Numbered from the stretch's first letter, positions 17,514-50,153 are shown. The stretch: DNA of 64,000 nt from an uncultured candidatus Porisulfidus sp. (GCA_965116025.1 OZ220480.1:1951447-2015446); one strand, 5' to 3'. Made by a program: numbers and translations. The notes: generated from the letters alone by a model not told the origin.

Positions 17514-18131
17514 ATGAACCTGACTCGATTCGCCTGCGCCGCCCACCGCTCCCTCGAGCGCGCGCGGCCCCTTGATTTCCTGCCATCGCTGGCGTTGCGC
17601 CTGTATCTCGCCCCGATCTTCATCGAGGCGGGAGCTCGCAAGCTGGACCTGCCGAGTCTGCTGCCGAAGGAGAGCGTCGCGCATTGGTTCGAGTACGGCC
17701 TGGAACTGCCGCTTCCGACCCTGATGGCCGCCTTGGCCGGCTGGGCCGAGCTGTTCGGCGGCGTTCTGCTGCTGATCGGCCTCGCCACCCGCTGGGCCAG
17801 CATTCCCCTGATGATCACCATGCTGGTCGCCGCCTTCGCCGCGCACTGGAAGAACGGCTGGCTCGCGATCGCCACCGACAGTGGGTTCTTCGCCACCGAG
17901 CGCACCATCGAGGCCACCGAGCGTCTGCAGGTCGCCCGATCCATCCTGCGCGAGGACGGCGACTACGCCTGGCTGACCGAGCACGGCAGCTTGGTCATGC
18001 TGAACAATGGCGTCGAGTTCGCGGTCACCTACCTCATCATGCTGCTGGCACTGTTCTTCCTAGGCGCGGGGCGCTACGTCAGCCTGGACCACTGGATCGC
18101 GCGGCGCTTCCAGCATGCCTGCTCGAGGTGA
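17514..18131 (+). CDS. DoxX-family membrane protein (HvfX/BufD-like RiPP-maturation partner)
   Basis: 205-aa polytopic membrane protein of the DoxX family. Sits between the precursor and the MNIO gene. Confidence 0.7.
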
Positions 18132-18957: not shown

Positions 18958-18960
18958 CCG

Positions 18961-23121: not shown

Positions 23122-26031
23122 ATGACCGCCACGCCCCCTGAACCCGGACCAGCCAAAACGCCCGCCCCCACCACGACCGACATCGCCACCGGCGCGCCGC
23201 GCCCCGACGAGCCCACCGAGGCCAGCCTTCGAGCCGCGGCTCCCGGAACCTACCGGGTGATTCGCCGCAACCGCCAACTGACGCCCTTCGACGAATCCAA
23301 GATCCAGGTCGCCATCACCAAGGCGTTCCTCGCCGTCGAAGGCGGCACGGGCGCCGCCTCCAGCCGCATCCATGAAGCGGTCGAGAAGCTGACTCGGCAG
23401 ACCGTTCGCGCGCTGACGCGCAGCCACCCGGAAAACGGAACGTTTCACATCGAGGACATTCAGGACCATGTGGAGCTGGCCCTGATGCGCGGCGGCCACC
23501 ACAAGGTCGCCCGGAAGTACGTCCTGTACCGGGAGGAGCGCGCCCGGGAGCGCGCCGAGATCGAGTCGAAAGAGCCGGGCGCCCGCCCGCCGGTGACATC
23601 CCTCCGGGTCAAGATGCCCGACGGCTCCCTGCGCCCGCTGGACGTGAAGCGCCTGCGCGCCCTCGCCGAGGAGGCCTGCCAAGGCGTCGAGGATGTCGAG
23701 CCCGGCCCCGTGGTCGAGGAGGCCTGCCGCAATCTGTACGACGGCGTTCCCGAATCCGAGGTCGACCGCCAGCTGACGATCAGCACCCGCAGCCTGATCG
23801 AGAAGGAGCCCAACTACACGTTCGTCGCGGCGCGCCTGTTGCTGCGCGACCTGCGCCAAGAGGCGACGGAGTTCGTCTACGACGCGCCCATGCGAACGCG
23901 GGATACGGACGCGGGGATCACGGTCGACTACGCCGACTACTTTCCCCGCTACCTCCGCCGCGGCGTCGCGCTCGAGCTGCTCAGCCCGCATCTGGCCCAA
24001 GAGTACGATCTGGAGCGACTGGCGACCGCCATCGAGCCGGAGCGCGACTTGCGATTCACCTATCTTGGCCTGCAGACGCTGTATGACCGCTACTTCATAC
24101 ATTCGGACCACACCCGTTTCGAGATGCCTCAGGCCTTTTTTATGCGCGTCGCCATGGGCCTGGCCGGACCCGAGGTTGACCGCGAGGACCGAGCCATCGA
24201 GTTCTACCACCTGCTGTCGACCTTCGATTTCATGAGCTCGACCCCCACTCTGTTCAACTCGGGAACCCTACGCCCGCAGCTGTCCTCCTGCTACCTGACC
24301 ACCGTGCCGGACGACCTGGACGGCATCTTCAGCTCCATCAAGGACGACGCCATGCTGTCGAAGTTCGCCGGCGGGCTCGGCAACGACTGGACGCGGATCC
24401 GCGCCATGGGCTCGCACATCAAGGGCACCAACGGACGCTCCCAAGGCGTGGTGCCGTTCCTGAAGGTCGCCAACGACACGGCCGTCGCCGTCAATCAAGG
24501 CGGCAAGCGCAAGGGCGCCATGTGCGCCTACCTCGAGACCTGGCACCTGGACATCGAGGAGTTTCTGGAGTTGCGCAAGAACACCGGCGACGACCGGCGG
24601 CGCACGCACGACATGAACACCGCCAACTGGGTCCCGGACCTGTTCATGAAGCGCGTCGCCGAGAACGCCGAGTGGACCCTGTTCAGCCCAAGCGACGTCC
24701 CTGACCTGCACGATCTGGTCGGCGAGGACTTCGAGACCCGGTACGCCGAGTACGAGGAGATGGCGGCGAGCGGGCGGATCCCGCGCTTCAAGAAAGTCCG
24801 AGCCAAGGATCTGTGGCGAAAGATGCTCGGCATGTTGTACGAGACCGGCCACCCCTGGATCACCTTCAAGGACGTCTGCAACCTTCGCTCCCCCCAGCGG
24901 CATCAAGGCGTGGTCCACTCGTCCAACCTGTGCACCGAGATCACGCTCAACACGTCCGACGACGAGATCGCGGTGTGCAACCTCGGCTCCATCAACCTCG
25001 CCTCCCATACCGACGAGAACGGGCTGATGATGGAGAAGCTCGAGCGCACCGTGCGCGTCGCCATGCGCATGCTCGACAACGTCATCGACTACAACTACTA
25101 CAGCGTGGCCAAGGCGCGCCGCTCCAACCTGCGCCACCGCCCAGTCGGCCTCGGCCTGATGGGCTTCCAGGACGCGCTGTACCGGCTGCGCCTCCCCTAC
25201 GCCAGCGACGAGGCGGTCGAGTTCGCCGACCGATCCATGGAGGCGATCAGCTACTTCGCCATCTCCGCGTCCATCGATCTGGCCCGAGAGCGGGGGGCCT
25301 ATCCCAGTTTCCAGGGATCGCTGTGGTCCCAAGGAATCCTGCCCATCGACTCGATCCGGAACGTGCGTCAGGCGCGCGGCGACGATCGGTTCTGCCAAAT
25401 CAACGCCGACTCCACGCTGGACTGGGACCGCCTGCGCGAGAAGGCGCGCGGCGGGATCCGGAACTCCAACACGATGGCCATCGCGCCGACCGCCACCATC
25501 TCCAACATCGCCGGCGTGACGCAAAGCATCGAGCCCATCTACCAAAACCTGTTCGTCAAGTCCAACCTGTCCGGCGAATTCACGGTCGTCAACCTGCATC
25601 TGGTGCGCGACCTCAAGAAGCTAGGACTGTGGGACGACGTGATGATCAACGACCTCAAGCATTACAACGGAGGCATCCAGAACATCGCCCGCATCCCGGA
25701 CGAGATCAAGCGCCTGTACACCACGGCCTTCGAGCTGGATCCGAGATGGCTGGTGGAGGCCGCCGCGCGCCGGCAAAAATGGATCGACCAAGCGCAGTCG
25801 CTGAACCTCTACATGGCCACGCCGTCGGGGCGCGACCTCGACAACCTGTACAAGCTCGCCTGGGTGCGCGGCCTGAAAACCACCTACTACCTGCGCTCGC
25901 TCGGCGCCACCCACGTCGAGAAGAGCACCGGCGACGCCCGCGGACAACTCAACGCGGTCGCCGCGAACGGCTCCTCCCCCGGCGCGCCCTCGTTCTGCTC
26001 CATGGACGAGGACTGCGAGGCCTGCCAGTGA
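23122..26031 (+). CDS. nrdA: Ribonucleoside-diphosphate reductase class Ia alpha subunit
   Basis: 969 aa with ATP-cone and catalytic motifs (…NLCTEI…, C-terminal CxxC tail …EDCEACQ). Confidence 0.95.
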   Translation: MTATPPEPGPAKTPAPTTTDIATGAPRPDEPTEASLRAAAPGTYRVIRRNRQLTPFDESKIQVAITKAFLAVEGGTGAASSRIHEAVEKLTRQTVRALTRSHPENGTFHIEDIQDHVELALMRGGHHKVARKYVLYREERARERAEIESKEPGARPPVTSLRVKMPDGSLRPLDVKRLRALAEEACQGVEDVEPGPVVEEACRNLYDGVPESEVDRQLTISTRSLIEKEPNYTFVAARLLLRDLRQEATEFVYDAPMRTRDTDAGITVDYADYFPRYLRRGVALELLSPHLAQEYDLERLATAIEPERDLRFTYLGLQTLYDRYFIHSDHTRFEMPQAFFMRVAMGLAGPEVDREDRAIEFYHLLSTFDFMSSTPTLFNSGTLRPQLSSCYLTTVPDDLDGIFSSIKDDAMLSKFAGGLGNDWTRIRAMGSHIKGTNGRSQGVVPFLKVANDTAVAVNQGGKRKGAMCAYLETWHLDIEEFLELRKNTGDDRRRTHDMNTANWVPDLFMKRVAENAEWTLFSPSDVPDLHDLVGEDFETRYAEYEEMAASGRIPRFKKVRAKDLWRKMLGMLYETGHPWITFKDVCNLRSPQRHQGVVHSSNLCTEITLNTSDDEIAVCNLGSINLASHTDENGLMMEKLERTVRVAMRMLDNVIDYNYYSVAKARRSNLRHRPVGLGLMGFQDALYRLRLPYASDEAVEFADRSMEAISYFAISASIDLARERGAYPSFQGSLWSQGILPIDSIRNVRQARGDDRFCQINADSTLDWDRLREKARGGIRNSNTMAIAPTATISNIAGVTQSIEPIYQNLFVKSNLSGEFTVVNLHLVRDLKKLGLWDDVMINDLKHYNGGIQNIARIPDEIKRLYTTAFELDPRWLVEAAARRQKWIDQAQSLNLYMATPSGRDLDNLYKLAWVRGLKTTYYLRSLGATHVEKSTGDARGQLNAVAANGSSPGAPSFCSMDEDCEACQ

Positions 26032-29833: not shown

Positions 29834-30790
29834 CTATCGAATCAGAATTCGCTTGACCGCGTACCCGCCGTAAAATTCCTGTCCAAGCAACGACAACACG
29901 CCATTCTTCCCATACAGATGCAAAGCTCCGATGGCGATGAACGAATTCCCCCTTTGGAGCGGCCCCTGCATGTAATGCGCCATCACGACGCTTCGAATGT
30001 CGATCGCATGCTTCAGATATGCCTCGCGGTGCTTCCGCTTGCTCGGATCCTTGTCGATAAAATCTGTCGAGAGATCCATCATGGCCTGCAAATCCTCTCG
30101 CCCATAAGCTTGCACGATCTCCTCCATGGTGTCGCGCATCTCTGGAAACGCGCGCAGCTTGTCCTTCAGCAAAGAGACTTGCGAGTCCATCGGCATCGCG
30201 TAGAACGCGGCCAGCAGTTCTTCCGGGCTTTCGATCTGATACAACTCCTTGTTCTGCAACACCGCGAGGTCCAGAAGCTTTTGGTCCACGATCGGCCCAT
30301 GGTGCTCCGACTTGATCGCGATGCTATGGATCGCGGCCCATGGCTTGACGCGACGGGCGAATTCCTCATCCACGTAGTTTCGCCGGAGGATCTCGTATAC
30401 TTCCCGCGCCAACTCCTTGCCCGCGACCTCAGCGAGCGTCTGCTCGTCCGGCAGCATCATGCGCCCGCGAATATTCTGAAGCCCATGGTAGGGATTCCAT
30501 AATTCGCTCCCTGGAAACGCCTCAATCGCGTAGCCCGAAGACTTAGCAAACACGTCCATAACCCGTTTCGGGACTCTCGTGACGCGCTCATCATTGCTGT
30601 GGATCGTGCCGAGAATGTGCCCGGCCACCCTGCCATCCTTGCTCACCTGCCAAAAAACGCCTTCCGAATATGGCGCCGGCCTCTGAGTCACATAGGCCGA
30701 TCCTGACAGCAAAACAAGCAACAGCGCGAACAGCGCGGCCGGAGTGAAACGGTCGGACATCTTGCTTAAGGCGCGAGAGGAAATTTCCAC
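29834..30790 (-). CDS. TraB/GumN-family protein (secreted)
   Basis: Signal peptide, GTIHSND motif, 318 aa. Noticeably lower GC than the flanks. Confidence 0.65.
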   Translation of the reverse strand: MEISSRALSKMSDRFTPAALFALLLVLLSGSAYVTQRPAPYSEGVFWQVSKDGRVAGHILGTIHSNDERVTRVPKRVMDVFAKSSGYAIEAFPGSELWNPYHGLQNIRGRMMLPDEQTLAEVAGKELAREVYEILRRNYVDEEFARRVKPWAAIHSIAIKSEHHGPIVDQKLLDLAVLQNKELYQIESPEELLAAFYAMPMDSQVSLLKDKLRAFPEMRDTMEEIVQAYGREDLQAMMDLSTDFIDKDPSKRKHREAYLKHAIDIRSVVMAHYMQGPLQRGNSFIAIGALHLYGKNGVLSLLGQEFYGGYAVKRILIR

Positions 30791-30911
30791 GAAAGTCTAT
30801 CACAGAGACTTCGCCTCTCTCCACTCAAGTTTCGCGCTCGCTCGAACTCGGAAGCGACTCCCTCGCTCCATAGCGAGTTATCTCTCACGCGCTATTTCTA
30901 TCCGCGCGCGC

Positions 30912-33900
30912 TCACCACTGGAGGGAGGCGCGCAAGGCGATCCGGCTCTCGTCGCCGGTCTCCGCCTCCAGCGCCAGCGCCAGCGTCTCGCCACGGCGGT
31001 AGCGCGTCCCCAGCCGCAGCAGCGCCAACCCGGACTCCTCCACCGACAGCCCCGCGTACGGCGTCGCCAGCCCCGCCCACGGCCCCGACAGCCCCTGACC
31101 CACCTCCGCCTCCAGCCGCGTCCGAGCCTCCGCCTCCCCCAGCCTCGCCGACGACCCCTCCCGCGCGAACAGCCGCGCCAGCCCGCTCCCCGCGTCGCCC
31201 CGACCCAGCGACAGCCGCAGCGACGGACCCCGACCGCTCGCCTCCGGCGTCACCGACATCCGCGCGCTCGCGCTCCACTCGTCGCGATCCGCCTCGTGCG
31301 CCACCAGCGCCCGCGTCCGAAGCTCCACCGACATCCGACCCGTCCCGTCCAAGTACGACACGCTCGCCCCCAGCTCCGCCCCGGCCCCGTCCGTCGCGTC
31401 GCCCCCGTCGTAGCGCGCCCCCGCCTCCAGCGCCGGCGTCAGCCTGCCCCCGTCCTCCAAGACCCGCTCCCGCGACCCCTCCAGCGCCAGCCGCACCCGG
31501 CTCGCGTCCACCGACAGCCCCTCCAGCCCGTCCTCCGCGTCCGTCCGCGCCCGCGCCAGCGAGCCCTCCCCCCGCAGCGCCAATCGCAGAACGTCTCCTC
31601 CCGCGCCCGAGCGCTCCGACAGCGTCCGCCAGCCCCCCGCCGACGCGCTCCGCGTCCGCAAGTCCGCCTCCCGCGTCGCCTGACCATCCTCCCGCACCCG
31701 AACCTTCCCGCGCCCGTAGCTCGCGCTCGCCCACAAGCTCGACCCGTCCTCCAAAAGCCACGCCATATACGGGCGCACCGACGCCAGCCGCGTCTCGTGC
31801 CGCCCCCGAACCCCGTCCGCCTCCGTGTCCAGATCGCCCTCCGCGTAGGACGCCGCCACCCCCGCCAGAACGTCCGGGCGCGCCCGGAAGTCCACCCCGG
31901 CGTGCGCCGACCACACCTCCCCGTCCCAGGACACCCCGTCCTCCGACCCGTCCAGCGACGACAGCGCCCCGCGAACCCAGACCGACGCCACCCGGCTCCC
32001 GTCCGCCCCGGTCAATCCCGTCGCCAGCGCCGTCCCGGACAACGCCGCCCGCCAGTCCAGCCCGGCCCCGTCCGCGCCCGCCCCCGACGCCAGCGCCGCG
32101 CCCAGGTCCAGCGCCTCCGGCTCCACCCCCGACGCCGCGAGCTCGATCCGCCGCGCGATCACCCCGGTCGCCTGCGCCACCGCCGCCGCCAGCGCCTGCG
32201 GCAGCGCCGCCGCGTTCACCCGGCTCGCCCGCGCCGCCGCCCCCAGCCGGTCGCTCACTATCCCGTCCGCCAGAGCGTCCGCCCCCACCGCGTAGCCCGT
32301 CCCCGACAGCAGCTCGACCCGGTACGCCTCCTCCCCCTCCGACCCCTGATCCCCTGCCGTCGGGATCAGCACGATCCCCGCCATCCCCGCCTCCGCCCCG
32401 AAGTCCGCCTGGAAGTCCCGCGGGCCCAGCCCGCCCTCGACGTCCTCCGCGTCGAAGCCGCTCTCCTCCCGCGCCGACAGCCTCAGGCGAACCGTCAGCA
32501 TGCCCGTCACCGCCTTGTCCGACGCCACCGTCAGCCGGATCGCCTCCCCCTCCGCCGTCACCGACGGGTCTGCCGATAATTGCAGGATCGGCGTCGTCTC
32601 CGACACCGACACCGACACGTCCGACAGCGTCGCGTCGTCGTAGCCCCCGCCCGCGGTCGCGTGCGTCAGCGTCACCGCCACCTCCGCTTCCGCGTCCTCA
32701 TCCGCCGCCGCCGACACCGTCACCGTCACCGGAACGTTCCAAGTCGCCGTCGTGAACGTCAGGCTCGATGGCGCCGCCGACACGTCCCCCGACGCCCCGC
32801 CCACCGTCACCGTCACGCTCGCCGACGGCTTCGTGTGCAGAACCACCGTGTACGAGCCGCTCCCGCCCTCCACGACCGTCAGCTCCGTCGGCGCCACCGT
32901 CCCCCCCGGATCGTCCTCCTTCACCGACACCTCCACCGTCCCGACCGACACCGAGCCGTAGCCCCTGCTCGTCGCCACATGCGTCAGCCGCGTCGGCGGG
33001 TCCGTCATCGTGTCGTCGTCCTCCTCCACCGCCGTCACCGTCACCGTCTGGGCTGTCGACCAGTCCGCCGTCGTGAACGTCAGACGCGACGGCGTCGCCG
33101 TCACCTCCGCCGTCGTCCCGCCCACCGACACCGTCACCGCCGCCAACGGCTTCGAGCTCAGAACCACCGTGTACGAGCCGCTATCCCCCTCCTCCAGCTC
33201 CAGCTCCATCGGCTTGAGGGTCACTCCCGGCAGCGGCATCGGCGTCGCCTTCACCTGGTCCGACCACGACGACTGCACCCCGGGACGGACCGCGGCGAAC
33301 AGGCGAAACGTGTATTTCGTGCCGTTCGTCAAACCCGTCACCTTGACGCTCGTCCGGCTCCCGCCCGTGAGCGTCGTGGTCGTGCTCCAGCCGCCCGAAC
33401 TCTTGTACTGGTAACCCCAGCTCGTTATCGGAATGCCCGACAAGGCGTTCCAGCTCAGGGTGGCCGAGGCGTCGCTCCCCGCCGCCGTCAGAACCGGCTT
33501 GGGAACAGTATTCGTCGGCGTCGCCTTCACCTGGTCCGACCACACCGACTGCGCGCCGCTGCCGGTGCGGGCGAACAGGCGGAACGTGTATTTCGTGCCG
33601 ACCGTCAGACCCGACACCGTGTGGCTCGTCGCGCTGCCGTCATCAATCGTCTTGGTCCCGCTCCAGGAGCCGCCATCCGGCTTGTACTGGTAGCCCCAGC
33701 TCGCGACCGTCACGCCCGACAAGGCGCTCCAGCTCAGGGTGACCGAGGCGTAACCCGCTTCGGCGCTCAGCTCCGGCTTGGGAACCGCCGCCGACGCCGA
33801 CGGCGTCGCCTCCACCACCGCCGACTGCCGCCCGTTGCCGCCACTGTTCCGCGCCCGAATGCGGAAGCGGTACTCCACATCGTTGTCCAGACCCGTCACC

Positions 33901-34610
33901 GTGTGCCGCACGGTGGCCGCGTCCGAACCGGAAATGGCGGTCCAGCCGCCCCAGCCGGCGGCGCCCTTCTTCCGCCGCACCTGATACCGCGTGATCGAAT
34001 CGTCGTCCGGATCGGTCCACGACAGCGTCACCCGCGTGTCGCCCGCCTCCGCCAACAACCCCGTCGGGGTGGCGGGGACGGCGGTGGTGCCGTCGTCGTT
34101 GTCAGTGATGGTGAGGATCAGCGTGTTGCTGTTCTGCGTCCAGCCATCCGAACGTGCCAGCGAGTTAGGGACAAGCCTTAAAGCGACGGTTTCCCCGGTC
34201 CCTTCATCAGCTGTGTCGCCCAGAATGCCAATCGCGAAACTTCCATTCGTCCCAATGTTAACATTTACGAATGCGTTGTCGCTGAAGACGCCGGGATAAC
34301 AGATATCCGCACCGCTGGACGGAGCGCTGCAAGAGGTCGTGCCAACATTGGTGTTGTCGGTTGCCGTGCTGCTGCCAGCAACAAACTCAACGTTAAACCC
34401 CACTCTAGTTGGCGTGCCCTCCCCGAGCTTGACGTTGATCGTCACATCCTTCTTGCCGGAATCGCCCTCGGTGATCGTGGTTGACGCGGTCGATATGGCG
34501 ACGGTCTTGGCGGCGCGGGCGTTTTCGGGCGCGGCGAGCGCCACCAGCGCGAAGAAGACGAAGGCGAGTCCCGCCGTCAGGCGGCGAGCGACTCTCCCGA
34601 GACCACCCAC
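30912..34610 (-). CDS. Large autotransporter adhesin-like protein with FN3 and Calx/cadherin-like repeats and a C-terminal beta-barrel
   Basis: Track ORF is 1279 aa (30912..34751). A signal peptide (GLGRVARRLTAGLAFVFFALVALAAPENARA) begins at the in-frame GTG at 34610. Repeated FN3-like modules (…YQVRRKKG…, …WGYQYKPDGG…, …WGYQYKSSGG…). C-terminal ~280 aa beta-domain ends in aromatic W (…RASLQW). The start is ambiguous because of the upstream poly-C tract. Confidence 0.75.
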   Translation of the reverse strand: MGGLGRVARRLTAGLAFVFFALVALAAPENARAAKTVAISTASTTITEGDSGKKDVTINVKLGEGTPTRVGFNVEFVAGSSTATDNTNVGTTSCSAPSSGADICYPGVFSDNAFVNVNIGTNGSFAIGILGDTADEGTGETVALRLVPNSLARSDGWTQNSNTLILTITDNDDGTTAVPATPTGLLAEAGDTRVTLSWTDPDDDSITRYQVRRKKGAAGWGGWTAISGSDAATVRHTVTGLDNDVEYRFRIRARNSGGNGRQSAVVEATPSASAAVPKPELSAEAGYASVTLSWSALSGVTVASWGYQYKPDGGSWSGTKTIDDGSATSHTVSGLTVGTKYTFRLFARTGSGAQSVWSDQVKATPTNTVPKPVLTAAGSDASATLSWNALSGIPITSWGYQYKSSGGWSTTTTLTGGSRTSVKVTGLTNGTKYTFRLFAAVRPGVQSSWSDQVKATPMPLPGVTLKPMELELEEGDSGSYTVVLSSKPLAAVTVSVGGTTAEVTATPSRLTFTTADWSTAQTVTVTAVEEDDDTMTDPPTRLTHVATSRGYGSVSVGTVEVSVKEDDPGGTVAPTELTVVEGGSGSYTVVLHTKPSASVTVTVGGASGDVSAAPSSLTFTTATWNVPVTVTVSAAADEDAEAEVAVTLTHATAGGGYDDATLSDVSVSVSETTPILQLSADPSVTAEGEAIRLTVASDKAVTGMLTVRLRLSAREESGFDAEDVEGGLGPRDFQADFGAEAGMAGIVLIPTAGDQGSEGEEAYRVELLSGTGYAVGADALADGIVSDRLGAAARASRVNAAALPQALAAAVAQATGVIARRIELAASGVEPEALDLGAALASGAGADGAGLDWRAALSGTALATGLTGADGSRVASVWVRGALSSLDGSEDGVSWDGEVWSAHAGVDFRARPDVLAGVAASYAEGDLDTEADGVRGRHETRLASVRPYMAWLLEDGSSLWASASYGRGKVRVREDGQATREADLRTRSASAGGWRTLSERSGAGGDVLRLALRGEGSLARARTDAEDGLEGLSVDASRVRLALEGSRERVLEDGGRLTPALEAGARYDGGDATDGAGAELGASVSYLDGTGRMSVELRTRALVAHEADRDEWSASARMSVTPEASGRGPSLRLSLGRGDAGSGLARLFAREGSSARLGEAEARTRLEAEVGQGLSGPWAGLATPYAGLSVEESGLALLRLGTRYRRGETLALALEAETGDESRIALRASLQW

Positions 34611-34630
34611 AGCCTCAGCACCCCATATAA

Positions 34631-34648
34631 GGGGGGGGGGGGGGGGGG
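34631..34648. repeat. Homopolymeric tract: 18 consecutive G (poly-C on the autotransporter coding strand)
   Basis: Directly read from the sequence: ataa + G18 + tatgag. Lies 20 nt upstream of the GTG start of the autotransporter, between TTGCCT (-35-like) and TTATAT (-10-like) hexamers. Confidence 0.9.
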
Positions 34649-34760
34649 TATGAGAGTTAGGCAAAGATTCCGCCTTAATCACAAACACTCGTCCGACCAA
34701 TCCAGTGCTGATCGCCGACATTATAGCCCAGCTCGTCAGGCGCGCCATCATTAACGAGAA

Positions 34761-37700
34761 TCACTTCGCATGATCAGGGAGGATAGCCCTCACAAGAGCG
34801 TCGATTTCCGTCAACGTCCCGTCCTCCGCGAGTCGTGCGCGAACGCGCCGGGAGGCGGCGACTTGACCAGCGGGCAGATCCATCGCCCCTACAATCTTTT
34901 CCGCCCTCGCCGCCAACGCGGCTAGCCGCTGATGAGCGCCATCACCCGCCTTCCAAGCCGGTATCGGTACCGCCCGCCACGGATTCTTGTGAAAGTCGCG
35001 ACCACTGGCGCGACAGGCTCGAAACGCTTCTTCGAGAGCGGGCGCGTTCAATACGGCCACTAGATAACGCGCTTCCGCGACGGTTCCCATAGAACGCCGA
35101 TATAGCTTTGAGTCCACTACGGCCATTCCCTCCGGGACACGCGCGGCGCGCATCACGTCTCCAGATGCCGGATAAACTACCAAATAGGCGCGACGAGCCT
35201 TCAGTGGCAACTGGGCTGACAACTTGCCGCCATAGTCGATTTGCTTGATCAGGGTGCTCGGGGTGTTGCTGCCAAGCCCTCTGCGCTCGCGGTAAAGATC
35301 ATCAAGCTCGGTCCAGAACGCTACCTTTCGAGCGACTTCCGTAGATAGCAACTTTCCGTCTTCGCCACGGGGAATTATGACCGTCTCCAGCCCTTCGGGC
35401 GAAAACCCGAACGGGAGCAACAGCTTTGATGTCAGCAACGGGGTCAGCCAGCGTTCCGGGACCTCGCCCTCGCGAGGCCGAACCATATCCCACGGGGGAT
35501 GGTCCGAACGCGCCATGGTCACGGTCCTAGCTTCGGACCGGGCCCCGGCCCCCACCATCGCCGTCTTCGTTAATACTTTTGGAACGACTGTGGCACCCTG
35601 CCGCCAGTGGTCGGCCGCATAGTCAGATGGTAATCGCGGGATCTGTCGGGGCGCGACCCAGCGCAACAAAGCCCAAGTCTCGTCCAACGACGAGGACGCG
35701 CCAGGCGTGGCACCGACGCTCTCCGCTTTCAGCGTTTTTCCGCCAACATCGCCACCGGGAATGCCAGACACCCGCCGAATCTCGAAAAGCGCGCAACAAC
35801 GCCTCGCATCACCCCCGCCAAAGACTTTCACGTCTGACAAATCAAGGGCCTGGGCTAAAAGACCGACGTGCCAATCGCGAAACTTCCTCCAGTTCCCGGC
35901 GCGAATGGCGGCCGCCTTGGTCACCCATGCGGCGGGATCGGAACCTGGGTCGTTCAGATACGCCATGCGGGCATGGCGTATGAACAGTTGCGCGATGTCG
36001 AAATGCGGAGCCTGCTTCCCGCCTGTCCAGAGATCAAGATGGCCCGCCTGTTCATCTTTGCCGGCCATGCGCTCCAACGCGCGTTTTCTCTCGGGAACCT
36101 GGATTTTCGCCAGCTTGACCCAAGGCGGATTGGCGACGATGCGATCAACCTTGCGCCGCGCCAGCCGATCCGGACCAAGAACGTTGTTGATATACCAAGT
36201 CCAGACCGAGTTACCTTCTCTCTCGATCGCCTCCACGAGATTCTTGTGGCATTCAGCCACCATTTCGCGATTCCCTTCGTTATCAACCGCCAGGCCGATA
36301 TCGGCCGGCAACGCGCCGCCGCGCGCGGCGGCATCCACCATGCGACGGAGCATGTCGGGAAAGTCCGCGTGTTCCGTGAACGTCCTTGGCAAAACGATTT
36401 CATGTCCATACGGAGTCCGTATCAGGATTTCCCCATTACGCGGCTCGAACAGGGTGCGCTCGTCGGTCTGCCGCAACATCAGCGCGTCGCCTTGATAGAT
36501 CGACAGCGCCATGCTCGCGGCGGGCGGCGTGGCCGGCAACGCCCGCAACAACGTGGCGCGACTGAACTCCACGGCCACCGGATGAATGTCGATGCCATGC
36601 ACGAGCAGGCAGACGACCTCGGCTCTTTGTCCCGGTTGCAGGTCTCTCGCCGCCTCACAGGCCAAGATGCGCCTCGCGCAGTGGTAGAGAAACGTCCCCG
36701 AGCCACAGGTCGGGTCCAGAACGCCAACGCCATCCATCCGGTCACGACCGCGCGCCGTGATGAGCGCGGCGGTGACCGCTCGCTCGCACCACTGCTCATC
36801 CAGGACCTCGCCCACCATCAATTCGGCGAGCCAGTCCGGAGTGTACACTTCCCCGAAGTCGCGGCGGTCACCGCGATCCACGAAACGCTCGTAGAGCGGG
36901 CGTAGCACATCGCCTGCCGTCCGCCGCCATTCATAGGCATGCGCGCGGTCGAGCAAGTCCTGCGCCCAGACTCGCCCGTCCTCAATCTCGACGATCCATG
37001 CCGGAAATCCATCGCCCAAAATCTCAACAGGATTGGGCCGGGCGTTTGGGTTGAACAGCGTATGCGCCACGCCTCGGGCGAGGGCGACCAAGAAACAGTG
37101 GGCGGTGAACAGCCGGATTCGGGCCGCGTCGGTTTCCGGAGCCATGCCTGACCCTCGGAGCATGTCCAACCATAGCCGCATCTTGGTATCGGTAGCCCGC
37201 CGAACGCGCTCGCCTACTAGACTCGCATGCACCTCCCGCAAGTCTTCCAGAGACCCCGCGAAGAGCGGAACCGGGTCAGAAGGAATCCATGGCCTGCCAA
37301 CGGGCTCCACGTCAAGAATCGGTCCGACGCGAAGCACTAATTCGTCGCTAGTGCTCGGCCGAAAACTGTCGAGCACAAGTTCTGGCACGGTCTGGCGAGC
37401 ATGCGGAAACCGCCACGCATGCCAGACGCGGCCATCCGTCACGATACCAGTCCAAAAGAGATCCGGTTGCTCCTCCAGCGGCGACCGGTCAAGCTCGTCC
37501 TCCATCTCCGCGGTCAGATAGCGCTTGAGTTGCTCGAACGGAGTCTCGCGGATTTGCGCTCGGTGCGGATCGTCCGCCAGACCGGCAGTCTTGGTCTCAA
37601 TAAATACCCGCCGGTTCGGTAGGAAAATATCGGCCAAACCACCCCTCGTCCTGAAGGTCAGGAGATTCTCGATACCCAAGCAATCCAGAAGCCGCCCGAT

Positions 37701-38189
37701 ATCCTGCCGGACACGATCCTCTGGACGGCTTGGATTCGCGTCCAGCAATCTTCGCGCGGCGCGAATCGAGTCTCCACCGAGGTCGCGCGGCACGGAACTC
37801 ACGCGACGCCGCCCCAGCGCGCCTGTCGTTCTGCCTGTCCGGTCGCGCCGTGCGCGAGCGGGAGCGGACCGATCTCTCGGACGTTCGAGCTCATGGATTA
37901 ACGCTCTCTTGATGAGTTCAGAGAAAGCCGGGGAAGTTCCTGTGGAATGATAGCAGAAGAAGCCCCAGAGAAGACGAAGACGAGCCCATGGCATAGTTCG
38001 CAAGGTGGAATCCCGGGAAGACACGGCTCCACAATCCTGTTCGCGCGAGACTGCCGCCATACGCCCTCGGCAAACGGAGGCGATCAAGAGCGCATTTGGA
38101 GCCCGCACCGAAATTCCGGCAAGTTGCGCCGGGACGCATGGCCATCCACCGCAAAGAGACGAGTCAGGACATACGCCATCCTCGGCCAA
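34761..38189 (-). CDS. Type IIG restriction-modification enzyme (MmeI-like fused PD-ExK endonuclease / gamma-class N6-adenine methyltransferase / TRD)
   Basis: PD-ExK-like segment near the N-terminus (…DIFLPNRRVFIETK…). SAM-binding motif I VLDPTCGSGTFL and motif IV IVANPPWVK. Large single polypeptide (~1100 aa). The true start may be an internal Met. Lower GC than the core genome. Confidence 0.65.
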   Translation of the reverse strand: MAEDGVCPDSSLCGGWPCVPAQLAGISVRAPNALLIASVCRGRMAAVSREQDCGAVSSRDSTLRTMPWARLRLLWGFFCYHSTGTSPAFSELIKRALIHELERPRDRSAPARARRDRTGRTTGALGRRRVSSVPRDLGGDSIRAARRLLDANPSRPEDRVRQDIGRLLDCLGIENLLTFRTRGGLADIFLPNRRVFIETKTAGLADDPHRAQIRETPFEQLKRYLTAEMEDELDRSPLEEQPDLFWTGIVTDGRVWHAWRFPHARQTVPELVLDSFRPSTSDELVLRVGPILDVEPVGRPWIPSDPVPLFAGSLEDLREVHASLVGERVRRATDTKMRLWLDMLRGSGMAPETDAARIRLFTAHCFLVALARGVAHTLFNPNARPNPVEILGDGFPAWIVEIEDGRVWAQDLLDRAHAYEWRRTAGDVLRPLYERFVDRGDRRDFGEVYTPDWLAELMVGEVLDEQWCERAVTAALITARGRDRMDGVGVLDPTCGSGTFLYHCARRILACEAARDLQPGQRAEVVCLLVHGIDIHPVAVEFSRATLLRALPATPPAASMALSIYQGDALMLRQTDERTLFEPRNGEILIRTPYGHEIVLPRTFTEHADFPDMLRRMVDAAARGGALPADIGLAVDNEGNREMVAECHKNLVEAIEREGNSVWTWYINNVLGPDRLARRKVDRIVANPPWVKLAKIQVPERKRALERMAGKDEQAGHLDLWTGGKQAPHFDIAQLFIRHARMAYLNDPGSDPAAWVTKAAAIRAGNWRKFRDWHVGLLAQALDLSDVKVFGGGDARRCCALFEIRRVSGIPGGDVGGKTLKAESVGATPGASSSLDETWALLRWVAPRQIPRLPSDYAADHWRQGATVVPKVLTKTAMVGAGARSEARTVTMARSDHPPWDMVRPREGEVPERWLTPLLTSKLLLPFGFSPEGLETVIIPRGEDGKLLSTEVARKVAFWTELDDLYRERRGLGSNTPSTLIKQIDYGGKLSAQLPLKARRAYLVVYPASGDVMRAARVPEGMAVVDSKLYRRSMGTVAEARYLVAVLNAPALEEAFRACRASGRDFHKNPWRAVPIPAWKAGDGAHQRLAALAARAEKIVGAMDLPAGQVAASRRVRARLAEDGTLTEIDALVRAILPDHAK

Positions 38190-38432
38190 CGCATGACGCG
38201 AGTGGAAGATCTTCTGGAAGGTCTCTGCACCCGGCGGTCGCGAGAGTTGAAAGCCTGACAGAGACGAATATCCTGGAAAACGCCCGATGCCGCCTTGGAA
38301 ATCAGCGTCAGTGCATAGCGGATCGATTCCTTGCCGAGAATGGCGAGAGGGCTCGTGGTCAAAGTGAAAGTGACCGCTTTCGTCACGCCAATACCCCCGT
38401 CACGGTCACTCGCCCAAGACGCCAGTGGAAAA

Positions 38433-38461
38433 TTGACAGCGCTCCGGGAGAGGGTTATAGT
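38433..38461 (+). promoter_or_regulatory. Near-consensus sigma70 promoter (TTGACA-N17-TATAGT) for the small NHLP-like ORF
   Basis: ttgaca at 38433-38438, 17-nt spacer, tatagt at 38456-38461. Strong SD AGAGGA lies 6 nt before the ATG at 38499. An upstream inverted repeat GTGAC-N7-GTCAC (about 38380-38400) could be an operator. Confidence 0.5.
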
Positions 38462-38498
38462 TCCAATGAGATCGTGAACCTTCCTAACGAGAGGATTT

Positions 38499-38774
38499 AT
38501 GGGATCATTCGCGGAGGCGGCCATGCAGCGCGCGGAGGACATGCGTCGCCATCTTACTGAGAAAGCACTTGAGGACATCGAGTTTCGCAAGAAGCTCGTG
38601 GAAAACCCCAAAGGCGCCATCGCCGATGAATTTGGCGTTGAGGTGCCGGACAACTTCGAAATCAAGGTGCATGAGAGTGACATGCACACTCTTCACATCG
38701 CCCTGCCAGTTGGCCCGGAACTTGATGAAGAGCAACTCGAGATGATCGCCGCTGGCCTGTGCTGTTGCCTCTGA
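38499..38774 (+). CDS. NHLP (nitrile-hydratase-leader-peptide)-family RiPP precursor-like small protein with a C-terminal LCCCL core
   Basis: 91 aa. LVENPKGAIADEFGVEVPDNFEIKVHESDMHTLHIALPVGPELDEEQLEMIAAG follows the conserved NHLP leader pattern (NPK…GV…P…E…V.E…H.VLP…EL.EE.LE.vAgG). Ends in the tri-cysteine LCCCL. Consensus promoter and strong RBS. Confidence 0.6.
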   Translation: MGSFAEAAMQRAEDMRRHLTEKALEDIEFRKKLVENPKGAIADEFGVEVPDNFEIKVHESDMHTLHIALPVGPELDEEQLEMIAAGLCCCL

Positions 38775-39232
38775 TCCCGAAACGCTCGCCTGTCCTTGAG
38801 GCAAACGGACCGACATGGACTTCATTCTGACGAGACCAGCTACGCGAAATCAACTCCGCAGCGACAAAAACCCCGAAAGAATTATCGCTTGATCGACCCA
38901 ATGGCCAAACCCTTGGCTTTTGAGGTGACCATCGTTCGAACAACTTTTCTGCGCGATAAGAACGTATCGATCACTCGCGCTCTCGTATCTGGAGCCATCG
39001 CCAAGACATGCTTGGCCAACCCACCGGCGTGTGGTCTCGGTCAATTCCCTGCCCCAGCCTCCCGCCATTCGCGCTCGCCACGCGACTCACCGCATGGAAA
39101 AGATCTGAGAAGTGACCTCACTCCCGTAACGGGAGAAAAATCCGACTGATTCTCGCCAGACTCTCGAATGGCCAATAGCATCTCGTCGATAGCGTCGTAG
39201 CGAGATTTTCTGGTAGCCAGACGTGGATCCGA

Positions 39233-40324
39233 CTACAGCAAGTCGCGTTGCGCCGGCTCTTCCGCATCGGAATGCGAGACCAGATTCGAGACCGTCACTC
39301 CGAGCAGCCGGACCGCTTGACCTGGCCTCGTGGCGCGACGCAACAAATCCGGCAGAACGTTCGCCATCTGCCGATACGACGCCAAAGGCCTGGCGAACGA
39401 GTGGCTTCTGGTCACTTGCGTGAAATCGCTGAATTTTACCTTGACCGTGACCGTCTTCCCGGTCAGCCGCCTCTCCTGCAAGTCCAGCGCCACCTCACGC
39501 GCTCGCAACCTGAGCGCGCGCGACATTTCTTCCAGATCCCGCAGATCCCGCTCAAACGTCGTCTCCGAACCCAGCGATTTTCGGGGACGGTCTGGCTCCA
39601 CCTCGCGGAAATCCATTCCCCTCGCCGCCTGATAATAGTATTCGGCATGCTTCCCGAACAGTGGCTGAAGTCGCTCCAGCGACCACTTTCTGAGGTCGGC
39701 ACCAGTCTCGATCCCGAGTTTCTTCATTCGCGCCGCCGTGACCGGTCCGATCCCAAAGAACTTTCGGATTGGCAGACGCGACGCCAGTTTCGGGCCCTCT
39801 TCTGGACGCACGACGGTCAGGCCATCGGGCTTGTTCATGTCCGAGGCGACCTTGGCGAGAAACTTGTTGTACGAGACTCCCGCCGAACCGGTCAGCCGGG
39901 TTCGTTCCAGGATGCGGCGCTTGACGTCTCGCGCGATATCCGTCGCTATGCCGCCGAACAGGCGGCAACCCGTCACGTCCAGATATGCCTCATCCAAGGA
40001 AAGGGGCTCGACCTTGTATGTGTAGCGACGAAAAATTTCCTGGATTTCCGCGGATACGCTCCGATACAGGTCAAATCGCGGCCGTAAGAAAACGACTTCC
40101 GGGCATCGTTTCTTGGCCGTTCGACTCGCCATCGCCGAATGAATGCCATACGCCCGAGCCTCGTAGTTGCATGTCGCCACCGTGCCGCGGCATTCCGGGT
40201 CGCCGCCAACGACCAAGGGGTGGCCACGTAGCGAGGGGTCTTCCCGCGTCTCGACAGCCGCGTAGAACGCGTCCATATCGATATGGATGATTCGGCGCGC
40301 GTGGGGATCGCTCGCGGAAGCCAT
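39233..40324 (-). CDS. dinB: DNA polymerase IV (Y-family, error-prone)
   Basis: IIHIDMDAFYAAVE…, …SLDEAYLDVT… and little-finger domain. 363 aa. Confidence 0.9.
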   Translation of the reverse strand: MASASDPHARRIIHIDMDAFYAAVETREDPSLRGHPLVVGGDPECRGTVATCNYEARAYGIHSAMASRTAKKRCPEVVFLRPRFDLYRSVSAEIQEIFRRYTYKVEPLSLDEAYLDVTGCRLFGGIATDIARDVKRRILERTRLTGSAGVSYNKFLAKVASDMNKPDGLTVVRPEEGPKLASRLPIRKFFGIGPVTAARMKKLGIETGADLRKWSLERLQPLFGKHAEYYYQAARGMDFREVEPDRPRKSLGSETTFERDLRDLEEMSRALRLRAREVALDLQERRLTGKTVTVKVKFSDFTQVTRSHSFARPLASYRQMANVLPDLLRRATRPGQAVRLLGVTVSNLVSHSDAEEPAQRDLL

Positions 40325-41130: not shown

Positions 41131-42315
41131 TTATGCGTAACCCGCCACCTTGTTGATCGCCCTGGAGACTTCCAACTCGCCCTCGGAGGCATCGTTATCA
41201 TCCCACTTCTTCAGCTCCATCTCCATGAACTTGTGGAACACCGGGGGAACCAGCGCCAGCGCGAACAGGGTGAAGTATCCCATGCCCGTGTTCGGCGCCC
41301 CAACCTCGTCGAGCTCCCAGAAGTGCGTCTCGCCACGATCATGGTGGTCCGCCTGGCGGCCAATCTCGATGAAAAACCAACTGGTGAACGCCGTGCTGTT
41401 GTCCCAGCTGTGGCGATAGTCGATGGGTTGGCCCTTCTCCCGGATCAAGCCGTAGTGCTCCAGATAGTTGAGCGCCTCCAACTCGAAATTCGAGATCATC
41501 CAGATCAGCAACATGGCGCAGATGCCGAGCCAGCCGCCCGCGAGCCAGAACAAAAAGATCGTCGGCAAGCTCATCGCGTAGCCTCGGATCCAGCGGTTCT
41601 GCCAAGACAGGAACGGCACGCCCAGACGCTCCAAGCGATGCTTCTCCATCGTGTACAGGAACTTGCTCTGGCCAAAATAGGATTTCGGCAAGTGGGCGTA
41701 GATGCTGCGCCCGCGCGGCGAAGTCGCTGGATCATCCTCGCAACCGAGCTCCAGGTGATGGTTGTACACATGCGCGTAGCAGAAGTGCGACGACCCGGAC
41801 AGCGCCATCATCCAGCGAGCGATCACGAAGCTGAAGCCCTTGGTGTGCGCCAGCTCGTGCCCGTAGATGATGCCGATCCCGGCGAAAATGCCGGTCGAGA
41901 CGACCGCGCCAATCAGCTGCATCCCGGTGATTCCCTCCTGGTAACTCAGCCCCAGGAACGTGCCGGTTCCGATCGGAACGCCGGTCACGTACTGGTAGAT
42001 CCGCCAGCAAATGGCCAGCTGCAGCAAGACGAAGACGCCCAGCATGCTGTACATGACGCCGTTCTGAAGAGCGGGCACACCGTAGGTGTCTCCTTCCTCG
42101 TCAAATCCCGCGCCCATGGTGCGTTGCGGCGTAGTGGTGTCGACCAGAATGCCGATGCCCATCAGGGCGACGCCAACCCAGACCCACGGGCCACCCGCCA
42201 CCACCCCGAACAGCGCCGACAGAATCAGCAGCGGCGCGAGGAAGTAGCGCACATTGATAAACAGCTTCTTCACAATTCCTCCATATGTAGTAAATATCGA
42301 ATATCGTGGGGTCAC
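41131..42315 (-). CDS. alkB: Alkane 1-monooxygenase (integral-membrane di-iron hydroxylase, AlkB family)
   Basis: All four His boxes are present: HELAHTK, NHHLELG, NYLEHYGL, and GRQADHHDRG (LQRHSDHH-like). 394 aa with the expected TM segments. Confidence 0.85.
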   Translation of the reverse strand: MTPRYSIFTTYGGIVKKLFINVRYFLAPLLILSALFGVVAGGPWVWVGVALMGIGILVDTTTPQRTMGAGFDEEGDTYGVPALQNGVMYSMLGVFVLLQLAICWRIYQYVTGVPIGTGTFLGLSYQEGITGMQLIGAVVSTGIFAGIGIIYGHELAHTKGFSFVIARWMMALSGSSHFCYAHVYNHHLELGCEDDPATSPRGRSIYAHLPKSYFGQSKFLYTMEKHRLERLGVPFLSWQNRWIRGYAMSLPTIFLFWLAGGWLGICAMLLIWMISNFELEALNYLEHYGLIREKGQPIDYRHSWDNSTAFTSWFFIEIGRQADHHDRGETHFWELDEVGAPNTGMGYFTLFALALVPPVFHKFMEMELKKWDDNDASEGELEVSRAINKVAGYA

Positions 42316-47780: not shown

Positions 47781-50153
47781 TCAAAAATCGTACGCCAAGG
47801 TCACGTAGCCGTTCCGGCGTTCGCCAAGGTACACGAAGCTCCCGCTGCGGTACGCCGCGGTATAGATGTCCTCATCGAAAACGTTGTTGACGTTCAGCCG
47901 CACGCTGAAATGCCGGCCAATCTTGTAGCTGGCGAAGATATCGGTCGACATGTAGCTCGGGACCTTGTAAGTGTATCGGTAGGTGCCGTGCGCGTTACTC
48001 CGGTAGGATGCCGCGGCGTCGGGCTGTCCCACGTACATCTCGCCCTTGTAGGTGACGGAAACGCCCGCCGCGGCCTGTTCCGTTAGCGCGTAGCGCAACT
48101 GAAGGTTCGCGCTCTCGTCGGCGAAATTGCCGAGATCTTTCCCGATGTCGTTCGGCTTGGAGCAAGTCGTCTGCCCGGTTCTTCTGCTCGTGCTGCAGAC
48201 CTCGTTCACCCCATCGCGATAAGAGTCCCGAATTTCCGAATTCATGAGCGCGGCGCTGAGCTGGACGCTCAGGGCCTCGGTGACGTTGCCAACCAGAGAG
48301 AACTCCACTCCCCGCACCCGATTCTCTCCGGTGTTGTAGGAGCCCGAAGTCTCGTAGGCGTTCGCCGAGGCCGATTCCATAACGTCATCCTTCGTGATCT
48401 GGAACGCCGCCACGGAAGCGAGCAGCTTGCGGTCCATCAAGTCCCACTTCATGCCCAGCTCGAAGTTCTCGGTATCTTCCGGATCTCCCAGCCCAATCGT
48501 CTCCGAGTCTCCGCAAATGCCTCCATAGCCGCAATTCCCTCCGACATCCGACTCCCCGCCATTGATATTGCTGGAAGTGCTGTAGGTGACATACACCATG
48601 GCGTCATCGAGAAATTCGTAGCTCAGGCTACCGTGGTAATTCCAAAGCTCGTCCGAGTACCGGTACGTGACCGGCGTCTGGCTGCCGAAAGGCAGCACCG
48701 TGTTCTTGTAGTCGAAGTCATCGTAGCGAATTCCCGCGAAGACGGTCAGTCTGTCGGTCAGGTCGAACGTGTCCATCACGTAGGCGGAGACCGTCTCTAC
48801 GTCGAAGTCAGCGTTGGAATTTCCCTTGCGGATCGTGCCCGACCAAAGCCGGGTGGGATCCAAACCGTCCGCAGCCGCCTGCCGATACTGCAACGATGGA
48901 CCGAACGCGCCATCACGATCCACGTAGCATGGCTCGGAAATCGCCTCGTCCGCGTCCTCGTCCCAGCATGCCGTGTCGATGTCATATCTCCCGTTCAAGA
49001 CATCCTCGTTCGTGTATTCGACCCCGAAAACGAGGCGGTGCTCCCGGCCCGCGATCTCGGCATCGTGAAAAAGATTCAACTGGTTGCCGAAATAGTCGGC
49101 CTCCTGCCAGCCATTATGCGAGCTGGTGACGCCCCGCGTGGTCGCGTTGGAGTTCACGTAGCCGTTTTTGGTCTCGCCATAGCGCATTCCATTTTCCAGC
49201 CGCAACGCGTCGCTGAACTCATAATGCGCCTTCAGCGTGGCCGCGTTGACTTCGGTATCCAGAAAATCGCGATCCCGCTGCACGTAGGTCGGCGGATTCT
49301 TCTCAGGCGTTCCGTCCACGAAATACGTGCCCAAATCCGGGATATCCTCCGCATTGAGGTGGTAGTAATCCGCGATCAGCTTCAATCGGTCCGTCGGCAG
49401 CCAGGTCGCGGAGAGCAACGCGCCCAAGCGCTCCTCGTCCGCGGGCCCCCGGTCAGGGATCTCCTTGTAGCTGTGCAGGAAGTTCACGCGCGCCGCGAGC
49501 GAATCGCTGATCCGCTTGTTGCCGTCAACGGTCACCCGATGGTACTCGTCCGTGCCCAGCCCTCCTCTCACGTTGATGAAATCGTATTCCGAGCTCGCCT
49601 TCTTGGTGATGGAATTCACGGCTCCGCCCGTCGAGCCCCGGCCCGCGAACGTGGAACTCGGTCCCTTGGTGATCTCGATCTGTTCCGTCGCGAAAGTCTC
49701 GCGGGTCGTCATGCCCGGATCGCGCAGGCCATCGACGAAAACGTCGCTGCGCGCCTCATGCCCGCGAATGATGTAGCGGTCGCCGAAGGCGTTGCCGTTC
49801 TCGCCAGTACCGATGGTGATGCCAGGAATGAAGCTGAGCACGTCCCTCAGGTCGGATTTTCCGGACTCCTCGATGCGGGTCTGCGTCAGGACCTCGATGG
49901 TCTGAGGCGTTTCCGCCAGTGGCTTGACGTGGCGCGAATCTCCAGATGTCCTCGCCTTGTAGGGCGCGCCGGCTTCCGAATAGGGGTTGGTATCGATCGT
50001 GCGCTCCTCGATTCTTAGAGTGTCGAGAACCACCGCCTCCTCGTCTTGCGCCGCGGCGAAGCCGCCGAACGCCATAGAGAGGCTCAGCGCCAAGGTCGTC
50101 TTCGGCAGGATATCGAAATCTTCCGCGTTCCTGTTTTGGGGTTGATTCTTCAT
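47781..50153 (-). CDS. TonB-dependent outer-membrane receptor
   Basis: 790 aa with signal peptide, TonB box, plug domain (…TVDGNKRIS…) and a C-terminal beta-barrel ending …VTLAYDF. Confidence 0.85.
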   Translation of the reverse strand: MKNQPQNRNAEDFDILPKTTLALSLSMAFGGFAAAQDEEAVVLDTLRIEERTIDTNPYSEAGAPYKARTSGDSRHVKPLAETPQTIEVLTQTRIEESGKSDLRDVLSFIPGITIGTGENGNAFGDRYIIRGHEARSDVFVDGLRDPGMTTRETFATEQIEITKGPSSTFAGRGSTGGAVNSITKKASSEYDFINVRGGLGTDEYHRVTVDGNKRISDSLAARVNFLHSYKEIPDRGPADEERLGALLSATWLPTDRLKLIADYYHLNAEDIPDLGTYFVDGTPEKNPPTYVQRDRDFLDTEVNAATLKAHYEFSDALRLENGMRYGETKNGYVNSNATTRGVTSSHNGWQEADYFGNQLNLFHDAEIAGREHRLVFGVEYTNEDVLNGRYDIDTACWDEDADEAISEPCYVDRDGAFGPSLQYRQAAADGLDPTRLWSGTIRKGNSNADFDVETVSAYVMDTFDLTDRLTVFAGIRYDDFDYKNTVLPFGSQTPVTYRYSDELWNYHGSLSYEFLDDAMVYVTYSTSSNINGGESDVGGNCGYGGICGDSETIGLGDPEDTENFELGMKWDLMDRKLLASVAAFQITKDDVMESASANAYETSGSYNTGENRVRGVEFSLVGNVTEALSVQLSAALMNSEIRDSYRDGVNEVCSTSRRTGQTTCSKPNDIGKDLGNFADESANLQLRYALTEQAAAGVSVTYKGEMYVGQPDAAASYRSNAHGTYRYTYKVPSYMSTDIFASYKIGRHFSVRLNVNNVFDEDIYTAAYRSGSFVYLGERRNGYVTLAYDF

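Follow-up and report, generated by a model that had tools for sequence, protein, structure and literature searches.

The window, by which we mean the whole stretch of 64,000 nucleotides that was analysed, derives from an uncultured candidatus Porisulfidus sp. and carries, at 38499-38774 on the plus strand, a small open reading frame with a product of 91 residues, MGSFAEAAMQRAEDMRRHLTEKALEDIEFRKKLVENPKGAIADEFGVEVPDNFEIKVHESDMHTLHIALPVGPELDEEQLEMIAAG-LCCCL (Table 1). In the first-pass annotation this product was described as an NHLP-type leader with a short LCCCL end, and the sequence is indeed as quoted there. The NCBIfam profile for NHLP leaders, TIGR03793, which had been proposed as a check, matches the peptide with 72.5 bits against a cutoff of 50.9 (E 1.9e-20), and the match spans residues 13-86 of the peptide and positions 3-77 of the 77 positions of the profile. 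The leader ends in ...IAAG86 directly before the core, a sequence motif of the Gly-Gly type that predicts cleavage at this junction, and its best relative in the PDB is the NMR structure of the NHLP protein MprE7 (8tb1_A). A sequence-level entry, P0001, contains the same peptide begun at M9, and thus with 83 residues. As a GAGGAGG or GAGG is kept before the start of the 91-residue form in the loci L006, L089 and L090, which belong to the 90 genomic neighbourhoods of relatives carrying the peptide and/or a YcaO protein (L001-L090), the longer form is favoured.

The leader also resembles the alpha subunit of nitrile hydratase, which is a protein of about 190-200 residues. Pfam NHase_alpha is matched with 33.1 bits (cutoff 27.2), and the full-length equivalog model TIGR01323 yields 31.4 bits, far below its cutoff of 249.85. 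This weak similarity is what speaks for regarding the reading frame as a truncated nitrile hydratase fragment, or else as a chance reading frame, and the annotation had accepted that orthologs revealing a longer alpha-like gene would overturn its view. No such orthologs were seen: a search of 5.8 billion proteins returned 62 homologs, all of them 83-92 residues long, and this uniform length refutes a fragment. Furthermore, the similarity does not extend beyond the part by which NHLP leaders are defined, and the frame appears to be under purifying selection, which leaves this explanation a negligible probability.

The alignment of the 63 sequences shows how strongly the end of the peptide is constrained. 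G86, L87, C88 and C89 are invariant, as are Q79 and L80 further upstream, and C90 is found in at least 90% of the sequences. The tri-cysteine end, which had been called unusual, is instead the invariant hallmark of the family, as all homologs possess G-L-C-C. Behind the three cysteines the peptides either end or continue with one or two variable residues (L, I, T, M, V, W or GI), and among the 90 loci the core variants include LCCCW, LCCCL, LCCCG(I/L/V), LSCCL and RCCC(C). Such a varying tail is incompatible with a CaaX-type signal, and the earlier idea of a lipidated, CaaX-like signalling peptide thereby lost its basis. Pairwise dN/dS values between the window gene and its relatives are about 0.04-0.12, values that are rough as dS is saturated, and they are no higher than those among genomes with intact clusters. 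They support the coding frame and purifying selection on it; together with the uniform length they also speak against the degenerate remnant that had been considered.

Upstream of the reading frame, the consensus promoter and the AGAGGA SD reported in the annotation could both be confirmed. Between 38000 and 39400 three promoter-like sites are found where shuffled sequences give an expectation of 0.3, and in the closest relatives (L006, L089, L090 and L009) a near-consensus -35/-10 pair is likewise situated 64-71 nt before the ATG, compared with 66 nt in the window. Disproportionately high transcription across phyla has been described for the precursor genes of the sponge-derived srp family discussed below (bioRxiv 10.1101/2023.06.09.544420). 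The window promoter agrees with this description, and the peptide gene is probably highly expressed.

Table 1. Features of the window around the peptide gene and of the Hvf operon. Bit scores are followed by the cutoff of the respective model.
Feature	Position	Strand	Basis
HvfA precursor, signal peptide and EGKCGEGKCGE repeats	17076-17405	+	NF050137, 49.3 bits vs 19.5
HvfX	17514-18131	+	205.7 bits vs 80
HvfB (MNIO, DUF692)	18115-18957	+	407.8 bits vs 360
HvfC	18961-19740	+	232 bits vs 142
TraB/PrgY/GumN-like gene, left synteny anchor	29834-30790	-	78-80% nucleotide identity to relatives
Replacement segment in the place of the exporter block	30791-38432	-	gap in the alignment with L089, L090, L014, L011
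fn3-repeat giant protein, 1279 aa	30912-34751	-	Pfam/NCBIfam
Type IIG-like N6-methyltransferase/restriction protein, 1142 aa	34761-38189	-	weak Pfam/NCBIfam matches
Sigma-70-type promoter: -35 TTGACA (38433-38438), 17-nt spacer, -10 TATAGT (38456-38461)	38433-38461	+	11 of 12 consensus positions
SD AGAGGA, ATG 3 nt further	38490-38495	+	direct sequence reading
NHLP (proteusin) leader, residues 1-86, ...AAG double-Gly-type end	38499-38756	+	TIGR03793, SrpE identity, 8tb1_A
L(X)4L recognition motif, L75-D-E-E-Q-L80	38721-38738	+	aligns with SrpE NLTEEQL
Core L87-C88-C89-C90-L91 and stop codon	38757-38774	+	G-L-C-C invariance across the family
458-bp spacer where relatives hold a 9.8-10.7 kb biosynthetic block	38775-39232	.	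blastn vs L006, L009, L014
dinB (Y-family polymerase), right synteny anchor, convergent with the peptide gene	39233-40324	-	PF00817 in syntenic loci

The peptide had been regarded as an orphan, but it belongs to a published family. With the leader of SrpE, as given in PMC10858898, it shares 52% of 82 aligned residues (E 5e-33), LDEEQL of the window peptide aligns with LTEEQL of SrpE, and the junction AGLCCC is the same in both. From the sequence the reading frame is an SrpE-type proteusin precursor with an NHLP leader, that is, a member of the sponge-derived RiPP proteusin (srp) family. The gene thus adds a member to a family that is already described, and the LCCC motif has been reported before: sponge proteusin clusters are known to contain two transporters, a YcaO, a precursor and genes of unknown role, with the LCCC motif conserved (PMC11832590). 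For SrpE itself, PMC10858898 and PMC10286304 describe the conversion of the LCCCW core to three thiazolines by the YcaO enzyme SrpC. SrpC showed little activity and a strict selectivity, and LCCCW is the sole core that was assayed with it, points that count against extending this chemistry to LCCCL. The L(X)4L motif of SrpE was shown experimentally to mediate engagement of the leader with SrpI, and this motif is described as the recognition motif of RRE domains and of C39 proteases (PMC10858898).

The similarity to the srp system (Nguyen et al. JACS 2021, as cited in PMC10858898 and PMC10286304) comprises the same length class of the NHLP leader, the L(X)4L motif, the AG|LCCC junction and, in the relatives of the window peptide, the pairing with an SrpC-type fused YcaO and an NHLM exporter. 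The two also resemble each other in their spread over sponge-symbiont MAGs of many phyla, and strong expression of the precursor would be a further common trait, as far as it can be predicted for the window from the promoter. There are also differences. The core of the window peptide ends with Leu91 and not with tryptophan, so that it is not a substrate of the brominase SrpI; a C-terminal tryptophan is likewise missing from many published and surveyed members, which makes this a difference between subtypes. In contrast to the W-type clusters, those of the L-type have no halogenase and instead contain FAD_binding_4 proteins, CMAS-type methyltransferases and an HpnN-like MMPL transporter. Finally, the window precursor is physically unlinked from all of its partner genes.

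Two further systems invite comparison. NHLP/TOMM systems are reportedly made up, following Haft, Basu and Mitchell in 2010, of a TIGR03793 leader, a TIGR03882 plus TIGR03604 cyclodehydratase and a TIGR03794/6/7 NHLM exporter. These models match the window peptide and the cluster proteins of its relatives at or near their cutoffs, whereas the srp subgroup is distinguished from generic NHLP/TOMM systems by a core of 4-6 residues and by extra conserved genes of unassigned role. The MprE/MprC/MprD proteusins from Methylovulum (PMC10286304; PDB 8tb1) are likewise precursors with NHLP leaders whose YcaO converts Cys/Ser to azol(in)es, and the Mpr leader fold is the closest solved structure to the window leader. 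However, in the Mpr system the dehydrogenase (MprD) is a separate protein, there are several precursors, and the cores are longer and differ among each other; the sequence similarity to the window peptide amounts to only 32 bits.

None of the enzymes that such a precursor would need is encoded nearby. The annotation had noted that maturases and a peptidase-ABC exporter are missing from the neighbourhood of the peptide, and this holds for the entire 64-kb window, in which Pfam maps and tblastn with cluster proteins revealed no YcaO, radical SAM, LanB/M or C39 ABC gene. Exporter, MMPL, CMAS and Trp_halogenase genes are equally missing from these 64 kb by Pfam and, for the cluster genes, by tblastn, and the co-localisation of the precursor with an SrpC-type YcaO is therefore not observed here. 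Three reading frames of the window were considered as cluster genes and rejected. With the cluster desaturases, the FA_desaturase at 41131-42315 shares only 26-28% identity, and its ortholog also occurs beside intact clusters (L043, L009 and L014), which makes it a paralog rather than a retained part; the 790-aa reading frame at 47781-50153 encodes a TonB-dependent receptor and not a YcaO, and the one at 23122-26031 (969 aa) encodes the RNR large subunit and not a second ABC protein. The first part of the window (1-6000) has a GC content of 52-55%, compared with 60-70% elsewhere, and contains long open reading frames at 54-1709 and 2456-5239.

A RiPP system that does have its enzymes in the window is an Hvf operon with an MNIO (DUF692) protein at 17-19.7 kb, and it had been suggested that the NHLP peptide could be an alternative substrate of this system. 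The sole point in favour of the suggestion is that both cysteine-rich peptide systems share the same 64 kb. Hvf and bufferin-type systems are also RiPP systems that modify cysteines, but they employ another enzyme family, a Sec-dependent precursor and another motif. All four components of the operon score above their cutoffs, one of them being a precursor of its own (HvfA), and judged by sequence the locus 17076-19740 is a complete, self-contained Hvf-type RiPP metallophore operon. As it is complete with its own precursor, nothing points to a cross-use of the NHLP peptide, which does not match the HvfA models and has neither a signal peptide nor a KCG motif. The relatives of the peptide occur together with YcaO, and no MNIO is contained in the gene tables of the surveyed loci or in the top shared families. 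We therefore think that maturation by the MNIO system is extremely improbable.

In the relatives, the situation is different. In every relative with readable context (L001-L008, L089 and L090) the precursor is situated inside one cluster together with a YcaO of 775-787 residues, an abutting protein of about 370 residues without a Pfam match, an FA_desaturase that is often fused to a GlnE-like domain, CMAS-type methyltransferases, an MMPL/sterol-sensing RND transporter, an FAD_binding_4 protein, an HlyD-like protein, a C39-peptidase ABC transporter (740 aa) and a second ABC protein (about 971 aa). The YcaO is a fused TOMM cyclodehydratase, with 138.7 bits for the leader-binding domain TIGR03882 (cutoff 36.9) and 272.5 bits for the SagD-type model TIGR03604 (cutoff 219), and the transporters form an NHLM set (TIGR03796, 876 bits vs 853; TIGR03797, 707.6 vs 709.4; TIGR03794 weak). 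When species-representative genomes were scanned with the cyclodehydratase P0066 as query, 80 loci with 60-77% identity were obtained (best 77%), which derive from MAGs of Gamma- and Alphaproteobacteria, Nitrospirales, Binatia, Acidobacteriota, Gemmatimonadota, Acidimicrobiia and Thermodesulfobacteriota, many of them with names of sponge symbionts. In a published survey, co-location with a YcaO was seen for only 116 of 343 precursors (bioRxiv 10.1101/2023.06.09.544420). In the loci considered here a family precursor lies within 10 kb of the orthologous YcaO in about 77 of 88. A Trp_halogenase never occurs in the L-type loci and was found only in W-type loci or in loci without a precursor in range.

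Some components of these clusters deserve mention in their own right. The protein of about 370 residues abuts the cyclodehydratase in 87 of the 90 srp-type loci (for example L006:12876-13982 and L090:12943-14064, both on the minus strand) and possesses an invariant G-x-H-H-x-K motif near the C-terminus (alignment A2); sequence searches found no relative of it in Pfam, NCBIfam or the PDB. The fusion of FA_desaturase with a GlnE-like nucleotidyltransferase is a membrane protein of about 806 residues (L006:16541-18961 and L089:16659-19085, both minus strand) and is kept in 76 of the 90 loci, with all core types. At L058:18043-19509 on the plus strand, a protein of 458 residues combines an NHLP-like N-terminal domain, seen as a weak NHase_alpha match, with a weakly squalene-hopene-cyclase-like region, and proteins of this kind are almost confined to loci with an LCCCW core. 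In the Ca. Foliamicus loci an ArsS-type arsenosugar radical SAM gene (L007:313-1284, minus strand; TIGR04167, 431 bits) adjoins the srp exporter genes, which is probably a coincidental adjacency.

What the window lacks of this context can be seen by comparison with collinear chromosomes. The genus Ca. Porisulfidus is called a known sponge symbiont in PMC12988363. Four chromosomes designated 'uncultured candidatus Porisulfidus' (L009, L014, L011 and L043), and likewise L006, L089 and L090, are collinear with the window and share about 80% of its nucleotides. In the relatives a biosynthetic block of MMPL, the ~370-aa partner, YcaO, the FA_desaturase-GlnE fusion and a CMAS methyltransferase lies between the peptide and dinB. 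By blastn, L006 9978-10277 corresponds to window 38477-38775 and L006 20082-20276 to window 39233-39427, and L009 and L014 repeat this pattern; only the short spacer is left in the window, and this spacer has no similarity to any of the retrieved loci. On the other side, the relatives carry an exporter block (ABC2, C39-ABC and HlyD-like) between the TraB-like gene and the peptide, and L089, L090, L014 and L011 align with the window up to about 30764, in the TraB-like gene, and again only from about 38477. No remnant of a cluster gene was detected in the spacer or in the sequence 5' of the promoter. The counterparts of the TraB-like gene are L089 2780-3703 (a homolog with PF01963), L090 934-1856, L014 21421-22334 and L011 20699-21618, while dinB is collinear with L009, L014, L010 and L043, and its 3' end is 77% identical in nucleotides and 80% in amino acids to that of the L006 dinB.

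The segment that stands in the place of the exporter block has a GC content of 68-72% and a skew of about -0.25, which is strong in the 30-34 kb region, whereas the flanks have about 60% GC. It is not marked by flanking direct or inverted repeats, a tRNA, an Rfam family or an integrase. As neighbours of the peptide the annotation had named a Type IIG enzyme and dinB. The latter is confirmed as the downstream neighbour; the identity of the 1142-aa protein as a Type IIG enzyme is plausible and weakly supported, as only weak N6-MTase, MmeI_Mtase, Eco57I and PglX-like matches were obtained.

On one of the collinear Ca. Porisulfidus chromosomes, the locus L043:9884-13047 has kept only dinB, an intact YcaO and a precursor with a VLFCT core that possesses a single cysteine; the partner protein, the desaturase fusion, MMPL and the exporter are all missing from its surroundings. 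It represents a reduced state of the cluster and shows that the srp system can erode in Ca. Porisulfidus.

Of the options that had been put forward for the window peptide, maturation by enzymes encoded elsewhere is the best supported. One contig of 2,018,984 bp in NCBI and ENA is matched exactly by four further products of the window, namely HvfB, HvfC, a Na/sulfate symporter and the small subunit of RNR. The search for a distal maturase and a C39-peptidase ABC transporter, which had been proposed together with this option, led to P0066, a full-length cyclodehydratase of 780 residues with 79.5% identity to the YcaO of L006, and to P0199, a C39-peptidase ABC exporter of 716 residues with 81% identity to the exporter of L090. 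Each is a unique sequence whose contig again measures 2,018,984 bp and comes from the same sources, and it is this agreement, not a set of coordinates, that gives the placement. Consequently P0066 and P0199 appear to be located on the window's own chromosome, at least 25 kb from the peptide. With these values they have diverged as far as the peptide (81%) and dinB (80%), and they therefore appear to be vertical orthologs that were relocated. With orthologs of cyclodehydratase and exporter on the same contig, the peptide is unlinked and not orphaned.

This bears on the proposal that the peptide is a true orphan, either a minimal RiPP or a signal peptide, in which the three cysteines stay unmodified for metal binding or are lipidated or thio-modified by enzymes other than YcaO. 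That no maturase is found within 64 kb fits such novel chemistry, and the literature gives neither a final product nor a role for srp peptides (bioRxiv 10.1101/2023.06.09.544420; PMC11832590). Against it stand the cognate YcaO and exporter on the same contig, the proximity of precursor and orthologous YcaO in most loci, the varying residues after CCC, unlike a CaaX-type signal, and the experimental demonstration of thiazolines on an LCCC core (PMC10286304, PMC10858898). We consider an orphan chemistry quite improbable.

In our view it is likely that the window, as part of the chromosome of a gammaproteobacterial sponge symbiont resembling Ca. Porisulfidus, encodes an SrpE-type precursor with a tryptophan-less LCCCL core, and that this precursor is matured in trans by P0066 and P0199. 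The precursor gene would have stayed in its ancestral place and lost the blocks on both sides, the exporter block being replaced by the fn3 protein and the Type IIG-like gene and the biosynthetic block shrinking to the 458-bp spacer. As both partner blocks are missing from the locus, maturation must then run in trans, with genes at least 25 kb away. The peptide gene would be transcribed from its own conserved strong promoter, and the folded leader of 86 residues, with L75xxxxL80, would be bound by the leader-binding (RRE-like) domain of P0066, the SrpC ortholog. By analogy to SrpC and LCCCW, P0066 would then use ATP to turn Cys88, Cys89 and Cys90 into three adjacent thiazolines. P0199 would cut after Gly86 and export a Leu-(thiazoline)3-Leu of about 0.5 kDa, as suggested by the AAG|L junction and by the LahT-type precedent (PMC10286304). 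Other conserved cluster enzymes could tailor this product further, but bromination is ruled out, because the core has no tryptophan and L-type clusters have no halogenase. We infer the action of both enzymes on the window peptide, the cleavage site and the final product from these relationships.

A less favoured alternative sees the window gene as stranded or redundant, a copy left behind when cluster and precursor were duplicated or moved and the ancestral locus eroded. Such a copy may at best add gene dosage and may be heading to loss. The disappearance of both cluster flanks would be in line with it, and so would the multiple precursor copies in other loci (L038, L054, L068 and L073) and the erosion seen with L043 in the same genus, which counts against maturation in trans. 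Also, P0001 is a sequence-level entry, in which a second copy of identical sequence on the contig would not show up, and the saturated synonymous sites prevent the dN/dS values from showing that selection continued after the split. On the other hand, the reading frame is intact with every family-invariant residue, promoter and SD are retained at conserved positions, the dN/dS values do not exceed those between genomes with intact clusters, and among the 62 homologs there is no second, different precursor from the 2,018,984-bp contig. On this evidence we regard a stranded copy as unlikely, and we prefer a functional precursor that is served by P0066 and P0199 in trans.

A more speculative extension concerns the product, as the tryptophan-less L-type systems may be more than SrpE analogues without bromine. 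Together, the near-universal ~370-aa partner, the CMAS-type methyltransferases, the membrane-bound desaturase-GlnE-like fusion and the HpnN-like MMPL exporter of L-type srp clusters could yield a lipid-tailored or metal-chelating Leu-(thiazoline)3-Leu, which would be a ribosomal counterpart of the thiazoline siderophores made by NRPS. The split architecture would in that case represent a natural example of leader-directed maturation in trans, in which a reduced symbiont genome regulates the precursor apart from its enzymes. We think that the odds are clearly against this idea.

The split states and the unlinked precursor leave the known chemistry of the family unchanged. In sponge microbiomes the srp cluster occurs widely and is strongly transcribed, and a peptide that appeared to be an orphan is now explained as a member of this system. 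Full, reduced and split states of the system occur within one symbiont genus, and in the split state of the window genome a cluster-based mining tool would miss or mislabel the precursor. As the unlinked precursor keeps its promoter, the invariant residues and a low dN/dS, its sequence suggests that maturation in trans is tolerated.
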